Below are positions 18,650-25,923 of a stretch of 64,000 nucleotides of DNA, piece after piece. The position numbers and the translations under genes were made by a program. The stretch is taken from contig NC_059428.1 of the NCBI RefSeq assembly GCF_021028975.2, positions 143,034,001 to 143,098,000 on the forward strand. The letters run 5' to 3'. Position 1 is the first letter of the stretch, and each line of letters opens with the position of its first letter. Origin of the DNA: Sphaerodactylus townsendi. Its lineage: Eukaryota. The notes under the pieces were generated by a model that did not search any database, was not told the origin of the DNA, and saw only the letters and a program-made list of their open reading frames with translations.

Positions 18650-19535
18650 GGAACAGCCTGGGGGTCCACCTGGATTCGTCTCTTTCAATGGAGACCCAGG
18701 TGGCCCATATAACCCGGGTTGCGTTTTTTCATCTTCGGCAGGCCCGGCGGTTGGTTCCCTTCCTCTCCCACGCAGACCTGGCCACGGTGATCCATGCAAC
18801 GGTCACCTCCAGGCTGGACTATTGTAACTCGCTCTACGCGGGCCTACCCTTGCGGTTGATCCGGAGGTTACAACTGGTCCAAAATGCAGCAGCCCGGCTG
18901 CTCACGGGAGGTGCCTTCCGTGACCATATTCAACCATTACTGCGTCGTCTGCATTGGCTCCCGGTTGAGTTCTGGATCATCTTCAAGGTATGGGTACTTA
19001 CCTTTAAGGCCTTACGCAGCCTGGGACCCTCATACCTTCGGGACCGCATTACCCCATATGTCCCTACTAGGCCTCTGCGTTCAGCAGTGGCCAATTTGCT
19101 GGTAGTCCCTGGCCCCTCAATGATGCGGCTGGCCTCCATGCGGGCCAGGACTTTTACAGCCCTGGCCCCTGCCTGGTGGAACACTCTTCCTCCAGCTGTT
19201 CGGGCCCTGCGGGATCTTGGTGAGTTCCGCAGGGCCTGCAAGACGGAGTTGTTCCGCCGGGCTTTTGGAGTGTCCAGCCGCTGATGGGTGCCCCTGCCTC
19301 CTCCTACATTTTGGGCCCATTACCATCTATGGGCCCACTCTTTTTCTCCCCTTCTGGGAGAGTCTAGTAGGAGTTGTTACGGGCATTGCTGTCAGTGGTT
19401 TATTAATTGCTGCATTTTTAACTTAAATTATTTATAGTCTAATGTACCTGTTATTTTATGTTGTTCACCGCCCAGAGCCCTTCGGGGGTTGGGCGGTCTA
19501 TAAGACTGAAAAATAAATAAATAAAAATAAATAAA
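18650..19535 (+). mobile_element. 5'-truncated L2-clade LINE (ORF2 C-terminus, 3'UTR, (TAAA)n tail)
   Basis: ORF 18577-19284 carries LGVHLDSSLS, SRLDYCNSLYAGLP, LQLVQNAAARLL and LHWLPV motifs; uninterrupted and CpG-rich, so relatively young. Confidence 0.92.
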
Positions 19536-20072: not shown

Positions 20073-20133
20073 CGTTTGTATATGGATTTACGGCCTTTTT
20101 GTTTGTCATGACGCGGGCTGTCGCATTATTTAC
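20073..20133 (-). CDS. RBFOX1: RBFOX1 exon, 61 nt (VNNATARVMTNKKAVNPYTN-G), end of RRM
   Basis: Acceptor CTTAG|GTA, donor ACG|GTAAGA, phase 0-1. Confidence 0.96.
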
Positions 20134-21063
20134 CTAAGCACATAGAAAAGACAATCAGTATCACTTGTGCAAAAGGGAAGATTCCATGATACTAATGAAA
20201 CACATGCATTATTACTGGCATTAGTTATGTATAAATGCAATTTAATATATATACCAAACAAAAATCCAAAAGAAAGTAACAAAAAAAGCAGGAAGCAGAT
20301 AACAAAATCATACTATTTATAATTACATTTATTCTCATCACCAGTTTCTTAAAAAAAACTTACAAATCATTTCAATAAAGTAACATCATCTCCTTTAAAC
20401 TTTAATAAAGAGACATTAAAAGCAAATTAAAAAGGTTCTGCATAATTGAAGATTTAAGAGCATGCTTTTTGTTCCATGGTAACACTGAAACGATAAAATA
20501 TTTAAAAACGGAAAAATTTCAACGAAAAAAAGAGGAGAGAAAATACCAGATGAAGGAACATGCAGTGGTGTAGAAAGGGAAAAAGAGACAATGTACAAGG
20601 GAAGAAATTAAAGGTCAAAAGAAAATAGGGGGGAAAGGACAAACAGATCTAAGCATTGTGCAACATAGCCCTTTCAAAGAGAGGTTCCATTGGAAAAGCA
20701 ACATGTAGCATTCAACACTGGGAAACATGAGCCTCATTTGTTCATGGCAAGAAAACTAACAAAACCATTCAAGCTTTCAAAATCACAGCTAACAAAAGGA
20801 TAAAAGAGGGGTGCATTATTTAACACAATATGGAGTTAACAATCTGAGTAAGATGTGCACAAAAGTCATATCCTCAATCCAGTCAGTGTCTCCAAGACTT
20901 GCTTAAAATGGACACTCAAATTTTACAGGCGTACCGATATAGAAAAAAAAATATAGAGAGAGAGCATCAAGAAAACTTAATACGACAAGTCAAAAAAACT
21001 CCACGTGGTATATATCAGCGCTTAAAAATATACGTGAAACGGCGGATGGATTTTGCCACTTAC

Positions 21064-21139
21064 CATTCAGCACCATCGCCGGCATGGGGTATGTATACAG
21101 TTACCATGGTTACTGAGAGTTTGGTGAGGGCCCTAAGCG
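21064..21139 (-). other. Candidate 76-nt poison (PTC-containing) cassette exon of RBFOX1
   Basis: Acceptor TTTTCCCCCCTTCGACCGTAG|CGC, donor ATG|GTAAGT; reads RLGPSPNSQ* in frame after the 93-nt exon. Confidence 0.55.
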
Positions 21140-21792
21140 CTACGGTCGAAGGGGGGAAAATGGAAAGGCAAAACATGCGACATCTTACTCAAAAGACGAT
21201 AGCATTTTCAATTGGTAATTTCTTTTTGTTTTGTTTTTGTTTCTCTTTCTGTCTCTGTTTCTTTTAAATTCTAACAAATAACGATTCAGGCAGTGTTGAA
21301 GGGGATCCAGTGGTCATAAAGAAAAGAAGATAGGGGCATATTTTCAGATTTAATGTAAAGGGTTTAAGCCCTCTCGGGAAAAGGAATGGGTGTTTATTCA
21401 AAATGAAAACAACTTTTTCGTTTCAGATTTAGTTAATAGAATATTGGTTGCTGATTGCTCAGATTTCCCAATTTGAACAATTTGGAAAGCCACTGTAGAT
21501 CCTGCATCAACCCTGCATTGGAAAACAAACAAAATTTAAAATAAAAAAACCAAAAACTATCTTATTGTTTTGCTTTGCCACTTAATTTTGTCTCTTTTAT
21601 TTTTTTTCCAATTTTTGAAGTCTATTGCACCCATCAATTTACAAAACCTTTTTTTCAAATCACAGCAGAATATTAAAAGCTCATCACTCTTCGGTCATAC
21701 AACTTTCAGCAACAATTATAAGAATTACAAAATCAATTGGTTTATTTTTAAAAAATTAATAAACCCAAGTAAGGCCAGATTATCTTTATTTA

Positions 21793-22077
<285 letters not shown>

Positions 22078-22387
22078 CTACATGCAGGTGGGAAGAGGGG
22101 GGGAAAATAACATGCACATCATTATTTCAGACAATGACCACTTCTTTGCTTATGTTCTCTTTTGTGTATCTCTCTCTCACTTCCTGCCTCTCTTTAACTG
22201 TATAGGCTCTCGTTCTTGCTTCATTTCTGTAACATGCAAATTAGAAAAATCATAATCGTACCGAGATGTGCAATTAATAAAGCGACCCAATGTGAACAAC
22301 TTTTCTCTCTCTCTCTGTCTCTGTCTCTCGCTTTCATCAGTTAGAGCATATCCCCTGAAGAATGTCAAAGAACGAACACCAAGATAC

Positions 22388-22425
22388 CTTTTTATTTATT
22401 TATTTACTGTGTCTCTAAATTGTCG
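22388..22425 (-). other. Candidate 38-nt poison exon upstream of the 93-nt exon
   Basis: Acceptor TTTCTTTTCCCCCCCTTCGTAG|CGA, donor AAG|GTATCT; reads RQFRDTVNK* in frame. Confidence 0.35.
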
Positions 22426-24989
22426 CTACGAAGGGGGGGAAAAGAAATCTAATTAAAAAAAGAAAAAAGAAAGAAATCTAAATCAATGGAGTGATGTTAT
22501 CACATAGGAAAAATAAATAAATTGTGAGAAAATAAAGTGTATCACTTTTGGAAAGCATGCAGATTTTTTGCTCAACTGGTCGGAAGTACAAACCAAAAAC
22601 GTGTGCAACAAATTTCAACGCCAAATGCAAATCTAGTCTAGAACATTGGCTAGATACTCATGCCATTGTGGTTTGAAAAAAAACATGTTTGTCATGCAAC
22701 ACTAGGGTTGTTCATAATTTTGTCGGGGTCTACAACCTTTACTTTTTTTCTCCTAAAAAAAAGAGAGGAAAATAAGCACTACCAACAAAAGAAAGCTGAG
22801 GTTGAAATAAACTTTCCTGACTCTCACAAAATATAAAGCTGAATTATGTGATATGAGTAAAGAAAGAACAGAATTCCAAAATGCGACCAATTGAAGCAAC
22901 GTTCCACTATTCCATATTGCCATTCACAATGTTCCTTTTCAGTTGCAAAATGGCACCCGCATCTGACATTGGGTCGATTTACACATGGCCCGGGCATGCA
23001 CATTTGACATGCAGTAGAGTGTCAGAGCAAGCCACGGGCTCACGCACCTTGTGCTGTAGTGTAGGATGTTTTGTGTAAATCGTGGCCTATGTAGGTCTGT
23101 TTATCATGTGGCTCTCCACTGTACACACCGGGGGTGGGGGGGTAGTGGATAAGCCCTGGTTCACAAGAAACATCCTCTTTAAATTTGGAGGGGGGGTTAA
23201 CGCATGGTTCCAATTCTTGCTCCCACACTCCACAGAATGCTGGACATACATGCTTGGGCTATGCGCGAACAAGCCCTCTGTCACCCCTATCCCTATTCTC
23301 ATTAGAATTTGCTTAAAGTGTTACACTTTGGCTGGATTCTCTTTGCAAGACTTCTCTCTCCCTCCCGCCTTGAAAGCACAGACTTCTGCAATGCCCAACA
23401 GGTAGGAGCCCTCCGGGGATGGGGTGGTATACCAAATTGAATAAATAATAATAATAGTAATAATAGGAGTCCAACAAAAGTAGGTTTTCCAAAGCAGCGT
23501 AACACATGACAGACTTTGCAGTTAGAAGATGGCACACTGCTCCATAAGAGAGGGCTGCAGAAAGCATATCTAGCTATACATAAGGGCAACCTAGTTGTAT
23601 TGATTCTCACAGCTACTGCATACATGGTTGTTGCTGTGGGAGGAAACTTGAATCAATCTAGACATTGGTCTACAGATACCCCCTTTAAGGGAGGTTGACC
23701 GGCTCCCACCTTCAGTCATTACAAAAATTGGCGTAGAACCATAGAGTTGGAAGAGACCGTAAGGGCCATCAAGTCCAATCCCCTGCTATGCAGGAACAAA
23801 GGCATTGTCTGTGGTACTGGCCACCAGGAAGAGCCACCTCAGACAGAAGTTGCCCACATGAAAAGGAACAGTGCAGCCCATCTACAAAATAATTATATAC
23901 ATGTGGTGCCCACATATATGTGGATGTCATGGCTGGGGACCAACAAATTCACTTTGCGACTCAAAAATAGAGTCAAAAACTCATCCGGCCCAAATCCACT
24001 GTTTGGTGTACAACTTTAAGCAATTCATGATCATCTAACTTCACTCCTATTTTAATGACATGTCCCAACAGATACACGCTTGCATTTTAAACTTCCAAAC
24101 ACTTTGCCTACTACTGACAGCAAAACCTGAAATTTTTGTGATTTAAAAGACCAACCATCTACTTGGTGACCACAATGCAGCCCAACTTTTTGAAATAATC
24201 AACATTTATTTTTCACTCTCCTCCTCCCCAAATAAAACCACTTAACTGCAAGAGAGGAACGGTTGTTTAAAAGAAGAGGGTTTTGGCTTCCTCTACTGGC
24301 TGGCATAATATGGGCATAAAATTTTGCTTCTGACTTATGTTAGCTGGAGACCCTGTGCCTATACAGAGCATACCAGAATCCTACAGTGTTCTAGGGACTG
24401 TGTGAACACTGGCATTACAATCAAAGAAGAACACCAGACATGAACGGTCTGGGTTTGTCTGGTGAGTCCCAGGGACTTCTCCCACCGAGGGAGGGGGAAA
24501 CATCTAGTGTGGGTCAGAAAAGCTTGTAGCCAAATAAACCTGTTCATATATAAACCATCTAAGGATGACTGTCTTTCCTCTCTTTCAGTACTGATGGTTT
24601 TACCATGTAGGGACCACAGTGGGGAGGTTTGACCCCTTGAACCTTCTGCCTCTATGCACAGAGCCTATATTGAGAACTGTCAAATGTAAGTCCCTGTATG
24701 TATCATTTCATGTGGATCGGCATCACTTTTCATTGCAGGATCGCTGCGTAACGGCAGAGGTGCATGAGGACAAAGCTTCCCTCTGTGTCCTGCTGGGCAT
24801 ATAACCTACACATTCAGGGCACGGGTGACCCAGCAGACAGAGATTTCATAGCTGACATTCTCCAATCCAAGGATCGGGTGAAGCAGATCCAATCCACTAA
24901 CAATAGTGTTTCCCCCAGGAGCAAGGAGCCTTCATCGGCACAAAATCCTGCAGAAACAGCAGACGATTCCTAGCGCCAAAGGAAAGTCT

Positions 24990-25869: not shown

Positions 25870-25923
25870 CTTAGAGCCTCGCTCATTAAAAATAATTTCA
25901 ACATCTAAGATTTTACCAAATTG
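25870..25923 (-). CDS. RBFOX1: RBFOX1 exon, 54 nt (QFGKILDVEIIFNERGSK), RRM
   Basis: Acceptor TTTGCAG|CAA, donor AAG|GTAAGC, phase 0-0. Confidence 0.97.

Follow-up and report, generated by a model that had tools for sequence, protein, structure and literature searches.

A candidate poison exon after the RRM exon of RBFOX1 has a homologue in RBFOX2 and lies within a predicted RNA duplex

Introduction

Does the intron that follows the RRM exon of RBFOX1 carry a poison exon through which the gene could send its own message to decay? According to a review, drawn on here in part, autism, intellectual disability and epilepsy have been associated with variants of RBFOX1, and the level of RBFOX1 is described as buffered by self- and cross-regulation. 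In the literature searched, as far as those sources were available, NMD-type control at the RRM exon is credited to RBFOX2 only. By the account in the available part of Dredge and Jensen (2011; PMC3126832), Rbfox2 exon 6* lies in intron 6, measures 74 nt in human and 71 nt in mouse, and is joined from exon 5 so that it replaces exon 6, the RRM exon (Fig. 5 legend); it reaches 20-25% of the message upon overexpression of nuclear Rbfox3, is stabilised by emetine, and is conserved among mammals and birds. We examined the question in a window of 64,000 nucleotides of Sphaerodactylus townsendi DNA (assembly GCF_021028975.2, contig NC_059428.1, positions 143,034,001 to 143,098,000), in which an initial annotation had proposed a poison exon downstream of the RRM exon of RBFOX1.

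Results

The host gene and its intron 6

The gene in the window is RBFOX1 and is encoded on the minus strand. Its exon-4 peptide best matched PDB Fox-1 chains, and nearly all named top matches of a protein search were RNA binding protein fox-1 homolog 1. The coding exons that frame the locus are as follows.

25870-25923, minus strand: upstream coding exon, 54 nt (exon 5), whose donor would likely be joined to the poison exon upon skipping of the RRM exon (a junction inferred from the available part of PMC3126832).
21985-22077, minus strand: RRM exon, 93 nt (exon 6 in Rbfox2 numbering), with TGCATG at -39, at -9 and in the donor.
20073-20133, minus strand: downstream coding exon, 61 nt (exon 7).

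Intron 6, from the RRM exon to exon 7, spans 1851 nt at a GC content of 33%; its mouse counterpart (mm10 chr16:7,292,277-7,294,069) measures 1792 nt. The candidate sits within it, as required of a poison exon of the exon 6* type.

Anatomy of the candidate exon

The candidate and its variant forms were located as follows (a slash marks the exon-intron boundary).

21064-21139, minus strand: candidate poison exon, 76 nt, from the upstream AG to a GTAAGT donor, stop at codon 10; identified by sequence, translation, RBFOX2 homology and single copy.
21064-21132, minus strand: 69-nt form that begins after the second AG of a tandem, 7 nt further on, and stops at codon 22; RBFOX2 retains this AG as well, which gives a 67-nt form there.
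21099-21109, minus strand: 11-nt block identical in RBFOX2, holding a possible internal donor ATG/GTAACT with its last exon base at 21105.

When the sequence was re-read, the 76-nt unit at 21139-21064, its quoted acceptor and its donor ATG/GTAAGT were as initially annotated, and translation in phase 0 after the 93-nt exon returned the reported peptide RLGPSPNSQ followed by a stop. The alternative AG, also part of that annotation, does yield a 69-nt form, and both acceptors lead to a premature stop. The internal donor would give RBFOX1 forms of 35 and 28 nt, both stopping early; when the RBFOX1 and RBFOX2 units were taken together, 8 of 8 acceptor-donor combinations stopped early. In all four RBFOX1 forms, 53-107 nt separate the stop from the end of exon 7, which is followed by exon 8; the stops are thus more than 50 nt from that junction. 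Under the 50-nt rule, NMD is expected when a junction lies more than 50 nt beyond a premature stop.

The last codon of the candidate is an ATG (21066-21064, minus strand) in frame with exon 7 and is a possible site of restart. By this feature, the exon could be read as coding for a micro-isoform, either a short protein or one in which the terminal ATG restarts the C-terminal half. This ATG is lost in RBFOX2, the reading frames differ between the paralogues, and the stops fall more than 50 nt before later junctions; moreover, 0 of the 120 RBFOX proteins listed (of 5432 matches) carried a tail from the candidate, a weak result because NMD forms are seldom annotated. We regard a coding role as highly improbable.

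The description of a CpG-retaining body in an AT-rich intron also held: the candidate body had a GC content of 53% compared to 33% for the intron, and 15 of the 26 CpGs of intron 6 fell between 21198 and 20931, within ~270 nt around the candidate. A search of the whole genome returned one match, the candidate itself, revealing a single-copy element of no repeat origin. No Rfam matches were detected across 21005-22500 at E values up to 1.

Splice signals and homology with RBFOX2 intron 6

To gauge how readily such splice signals arise, a rough consensus filter (donor matching 8 of 9 positions, at least 75% pyrimidines, AG-GT spacing of 40-200 nt) was applied to 58 kb of the gene strand. It retained 6 AG-GT pairs: the candidate, one coding exon and four others. 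Since six comparable pairs occur in 58 kb, the splice signals of the candidate alone are not above chance, and the four other unexplained pairs of like strength are what would be expected if the candidate were a chance pseudo-exon in an AT-rich intron.

Homology bears directly on this explanation. The genome carries four Rbfox genes. The C6 gene matched RBM9 chain 2cq3_A best and is identified as RBFOX2; judged by peptide signatures, the gene on C3 resembles RBFOX3 and that on C15 appears rbfox1-like. Alignment of 251 nt around the candidate to RBFOX2 intron 6 gave a score of 84 (z 15.5) against a background of 28.9 +/- 3.5 with a maximum of 39, obtained from 200 dinucleotide shuffles. For the 5 remaining paralogous introns that were tested, z ranged from -1.1 to 1.0, with no homology to the candidate; a corresponding poison-exon element in RBFOX3 or in the fourth paralogue was considered and rejected, being absent from both. 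The fourth gene (G000:C15:19860001-19870000) has intact RRM exons and is without TGCATG at its RRM-exon splice signals.

The homologous RBFOX2 unit measures 74 nt and begins 839 nt from the RRM-exon donor, compared to 845 nt for the candidate. It keeps both AGs 7 nt apart, the GTAAGT donor and the internal donor-like ATG/GTAACT; donor consensus positions number 7 of 9, compared to 8 of 9 in RBFOX1. Because a homologous unit occupies the same place in the RBFOX2 intron, we consider the candidate a real element. The two units differ by indels of 1, 6, 1 and 4 nt; the frame is therefore not conserved and there is no coding constraint. Local alignments were used throughout, because long insertions in RBFOX2 caused MAFFT, when run globally, to misplace two elements described below, the upstream arm and the post-donor block.

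At synonymous sites in exons 4, 5 and 7, 24 of 56 codons were identical between RBFOX1 and RBFOX2 and 25 of 58 between RBFOX1 and RBFOX3. This equal divergence indicates that the duplication is old, and the RBFOX1/RBFOX2 duplication is dated to early vertebrates. The RRM exon was exceptional, with 24 of 30 codons identical between RBFOX1 and RBFOX2 compared to 12 of 27 between RBFOX1 and RBFOX3, a similarity that would fit a shared constraint on the RRM exon and its intron. Old local gene conversion is a possible source of the RBFOX1-RBFOX2 similarity. At synonymous sites RBFOX2 is otherwise as far from RBFOX1 as RBFOX3 is, yet it matches the candidate at z 15.5 and in the same position. The paralogue alignment thus already refutes the chance pseudo-exon, barring a local gene conversion of great age that has since decayed neutrally; we assign it a negligible probability.

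Several further exon-like units were noted in these introns. In the intron before the RRM exon, a 71-nt unit (23118-23048, minus strand) has a donor AAG/GTGCGT and an in-frame stop and is followed by two TGCATG, at distances of 35 and 48 nt, an arrangement typical of exons that Rbfox activates; it is a possible functional counterpart of Rbfox2 exon 5*. It gave no alignment to RBFOX2 intron 5 (score 29, equal to background). When the two introns 5 were compared for an exon 5* counterpart, nothing rose above background beyond a shared repeat, low-complexity sequence and the final 60 nt that lead up to the RRM exon. RBFOX2 intron 5 (C6) itself has, ~6490-6440 nt before the RRM exon, an exon-like unit of 38-47 nt with a donor AAG/GTGCAT and a TGCATG ~38 nt downstream, which could be exon 5*; the available part of PMC3126832 gives 41 nt for that exon, and no AG of the unit gives 41 nt. 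A 38-nt unit (22425-22388, minus strand) has a strong acceptor (90% pyrimidines) resembling that of the candidate, a weaker donor and an in-frame stop; a match to it in RBFOX2 was not found. In the intron after exon 7, a perfect donor consensus AAG/GTAAGT occurs at 19002 (minus strand) in a GC-rich stretch with no pyrimidine-rich acceptor nearby.

Relationship to Rbfox2 exon 6*

Five AG-GT pairs were found in RBFOX2 intron 6, of which the homologous unit alone is 74 nt. By its place and length, the RBFOX2 unit on C6 is likely the orthologue of published exon 6*. The stop lies inside the unit in this genome; the part of PMC3126832 at hand places exon 6* stops in exon 7. On sequence grounds, the candidate is in turn likely the RBFOX1 counterpart of exon 6*. 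The initial annotation had argued from NMD-inducing cryptic exons of the paralogue by analogy; its poison-exon reading is strengthened to one of homology (z 15.5), and its set of junctions is amended. As Rbfox2 exon 6* joins from exon 5, the primary junction to be expected is 25870>21139, which that annotation had missed, and not 21985>21139 alone, and the candidate would probably replace the RRM exon. The stop is the same from exon 5 or from the RRM exon because the latter is 93 nt long. By analogy with exon 6*, the RBFOX1 candidate is probably spliced as a poison exon.

A predicted duplex encloses the exon in both genes

With simple sequence set aside, intron 6 of RBFOX1 and that of RBFOX2 have 16 exact blocks of 9 nt or more in common. 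The two longest, one of 15 nt (21194-21180) and one of 17 nt (20859-20843), lie on either side of the candidate and are mutually complementary; their pairing is termed H1.

21180-21193, minus strand: H1 upstream arm, 41 nt before the exon, in the 15-nt block identical in RBFOX2.
20843-20856, minus strand: H1 downstream arm, 208 nt after the donor, in the 17-nt block identical in RBFOX2.

The H1 duplex comprises 14 pairs (12 Watson-Crick and 2 others) and is predicted to enclose the exon in both genes. Its mean pair probability was 0.93-0.97 in 4 of 4 folds, and that of its central pair was 1.0 in 6 of 6. H1 was the best partner of the upstream arm intron-wide, at -23.2 compared to -13.9 kcal/mol for the next in one gene and -20.4 compared to -13.0 in the other. 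The minimum free energy of the region gave z of -2.97 and -2.59 in the two genes, with 0 of 60 shuffles each as good. By itself, a perfect inverted repeat of 12 bp is common, arising in 62 of 200 shuffled introns for one gene and in 53 of 200 for the other; the chance that the two most conserved blocks pair with one another is roughly estimated at 4.5e-4, given 120 block pairs.

The exon could be a real poison exon while the complementary blocks serve as separate protein-binding sites, on RNA or DNA, that are unpaired in vivo. H1 offers no covariation because 14 of 14 pairs are identical in RBFOX1 and RBFOX2, two sequences were compared, and pairing across 340-450 nt is a prediction, all of which suit such separate sites. 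Exact 12-nt reverse complements in both genes are, by contrast, unexpected for separate sites under the rough estimate above, and loop-outs of poison exons have precedent in BRD2 and BRD3 (PMC10789245 and PMC11062102, as far as available). We therefore hold separate binding sites to be unlikely, if the least unlikely of the alternatives, and prefer the duplex. As a modelled structure, H1 appears well supported by conservation between the paralogues, and we consider it probable that it forms and affects inclusion. In the accessible parts of the sources, looped-out exons show lower inclusion (PMC8052449), and 25% of cryptic poison exons carry paired conserved complementary regions (PMC11062102).

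Two further helices were modelled within the enclosed region.

21016-21025, minus strand: H2, predicted to pair with 21142-21133, a segment that includes both acceptor AGs (pair probability 0.85-0.86).
21040-21049, minus strand: H3, in a post-donor block that RBFOX2 also conserves; the best partner of exon bases 21081-21073, but not favoured when the whole region is folded.

In RBFOX1, the probability of being unpaired was 0.13 for the upstream AG and 0.09 for the second acceptor AG; the upstream AG was predicted to be paired in RBFOX2 as well (0.02 unpaired). The RBFOX2 acceptor paired with a nearer partner (probability 1.0) and its collinear H2 partner had a probability of 0.0. If the collinear H2 formed in RBFOX2, its 7 consecutive pairs would include two compensatory pairs and one change on a single side, in a register fixed by the pairing and not by the aligner. 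The local alignment of the post-donor block was reached in 4 of 500 shuffles, and H3, which includes one compensatory pair, ranked first among possible partners in each of the two introns. The three compensatory pairs of H2 and H3 include two in CpG context, and these two could represent parallel CpG decay. From modelling, H2 is plausible and H3 weak; H3 was rejected as a supported helix, as ensemble folding spoke against it (probability 0.01 and 0.0 in the whole-region folds of the two genes).

RBFOX2 intron 6 has a U-rich insertion before the exon and an A-rich insertion after it (offsets 783-816 and 968-1000), both absent in RBFOX1, and these are predicted to pair with one another inside the clamp with a probability of 0.78-0.99.

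Rbfox binding motifs

TGCATG motifs surround the RRM exon in both genes: RBFOX1 has them at -39, at -9 and in the donor, and RBFOX2 at -33, at -9 and likewise in the donor. Repression by Rbfox through TGCATG sites is known for the RRM exon family. Within RBFOX1 intron 6, GCATG occurred 5 times compared to 1.12 expected (1 of 500 shuffles), and 3 times downstream of the candidate compared to 0.61 expected (12 of 500 shuffles); RBFOX2 intron 6 displayed no such excess (125 of 500 shuffles intron-wide and 177 of 500 downstream). The sites of interest for the candidate are as follows.

21174-21178, minus strand: GCATG adjoining the end of the upstream arm, upstream of the acceptor; RBFOX2 is without GCATG here.
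20552-20564, minus strand: downstream TGCATG, whose GCATG (from 20563) opens a 12-nt block shared exactly with RBFOX2 intron 6 (8 of 1000 shuffles).

The first of these, which lies nearer to the candidate, was missed by the initial annotation. The downstream (T)GCATG sites it listed were found, ending at 20559, 20461 and 20203. As support for enhanced inclusion they are weak: they are enriched in RBFOX1 and one lies in the shared 12-nt block, but they are distant, at 500-860 nt from the candidate donor, and unenriched in RBFOX2. Conservation is better for another flanking feature, the complementary blocks of H1, which the initial annotation had not noticed. The flanks of the 12-nt block do not align between the two genes. 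By analogy with Rbfox2, inclusion of the RBFOX1 candidate is slightly favoured to depend on Rbfox.

An Rbfox RNA bridge of the ENAH type (PMC8052449, from the part available), in which a duplex carries a distant Rbfox site to within ~50 nt of the exon, was also considered and rejected. The nearest downstream GCATG is 280 nt past the downstream arm, and the duplex encloses the exon instead of bridging to it, a geometry of loop-out.

Published exon catalogues

Neither an RBFOX1 exon at this place nor a structure around exon 6* was found in the literature searched, which took in PMC13542418, PMC3967051, PMC3552424, PMC11062102, PMC11632617, PMC13078869, PMC8052449, PMC7764535, PMC6547761 and PMC4801060; VastDB and GENCODE lay outside the search. 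Table ST1 of PMC11632617 (poison exons) has 0 entries for RBFOX1. File 3 of PMC13078869 has 4 Rbfox1 and 4 Rbfox2 events, none in intron 6, and 12 of the 13 supplementary files of PMC11188260 hold one Rbfox1 event, of 40 nt and located elsewhere, with the candidate absent. The supplements of PMC8052449 (5 files), which probably do not include the full pair catalogue, gave 0 matches. Because Rbfox2 exon 6* is not seen in them either, the three poison-exon tables are insensitive at this locus. Prior annotation of the candidate exon elsewhere is quite possible. From the sequence comparison, the candidate is a real, conserved element and likely the RBFOX1 twin of exon 6*; no description of the duplex shared by the paralogues was found in the literature searched.

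The candidate could instead be a decoy or vestigial exon, a conserved unit that binds early spliceosome parts and tunes RRM-exon skipping or intron retention while being rarely spliced in RBFOX1. Such a role would agree with the predicted pairing of both acceptor AGs and with the absence of the candidate from the three tables. It agrees less well with the homologous RBFOX2 unit, which matches an exon that contributes a substantial share of the message under Rbfox3 overexpression (the available part of PMC3126832), and with RBFOX1 having kept all splice signals, including a donor at least as close to consensus as that of RBFOX2. We consider a decoy doubtful, slightly more so than separate protein-binding sites, and retain the spliced poison exon as the preferred reading.

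Discussion

Taken together, these results on balance favour a poison exon that predates the RBFOX1/RBFOX2 split, is likely switched on at high Rbfox levels, is predicted to trigger NMD, and is predicted to be skipped by default under the influence of a flanking duplex. As a working model, Rbfox proteins would repress the RRM exon by binding the TGCATG sites within its splice signals. The freed exon-5 donor could then be joined, as judged from Rbfox2, either to exon 7, yielding the dominant-negative delta-RRM protein, or to the candidate, yielding a message subject to NMD. H1 (21193-21180 with 20856-20843) may loop out the exon and H2 may mask its acceptor, setting a threshold for inclusion, as folding and precedent suggest. 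At the most speculative step, and the weakest, Rbfox bound to distant sites, or to the GCATG that adjoins the upstream arm, might help to open the clamp. More tentatively, RBFOX1 and RBFOX2 may share an RNA-clamped poison-exon module that predates the early-vertebrate duplication. In such a module the duplex would hold the exon out until the RRM exon is repressed by Rbfox, and structure would decide whether an excess of Rbfox leads to dominant-negative protein or to decay.

If the model is correct, the RBFOX feedback loop would gain a second arm in its most disease-relevant member, RBFOX1. The 76-nt exon and its two short pairing arms would be a place to look for deep-intronic variants, and the duplex arms would offer antisense handles on RBFOX1 and RBFOX2 dosage.

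Comparison with known systems places the candidate closest to hand beside Rbfox2 exon 6*: both lie in the same intron, after the 93-nt RRM exon, and introduce a premature stop. The RBFOX1 candidate differs in being 76 nt long, in having its stop inside the exon, and in that its inclusion and NMD are predicted. Exon 6* is described for Rbfox2 only, and the part of PMC3126832 available here mentions neither an RBFOX1 counterpart nor RNA structure. In the delta-RRM autoregulation of Rbfox genes, in-frame skipping yields a dominant-negative protein (Damianov and Black 2010, as described in papers that cite it). The candidate lies at that locus, whose RRM exon has the same TGCATG motifs around it; the outcome of its inclusion would be decay instead of a dominant-negative protein, and hence a second arm.

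The predicted structure resembles that of other paralogous genes. In the SCN-alpha genes, according to the available part of PMC12772994, intron blocks kept between paralogues pair and act with Rbfox2 and Rbfox sites; those elements govern mutually exclusive coding exons, whereas in RBFOX1 the exon is a candidate poison exon in the regulator's own gene. BRD2 exon 3b and BRD3 exon 5b are likewise poison exons between conserved complementary intron blocks (Petrova 2024, PMC10789245; PMC11062102; both in part). BRD2 and BRD3 are reported to have gained exon and structure independently, in non-homologous introns; by contrast, the exon and predicted duplex of RBFOX1 and RBFOX2 are homologous. If the duplex is real, a poison exon together with its RNA structure would have been kept in two paralogues since the early-vertebrate duplication, the opposite of the independent origin in BRD2 and BRD3.
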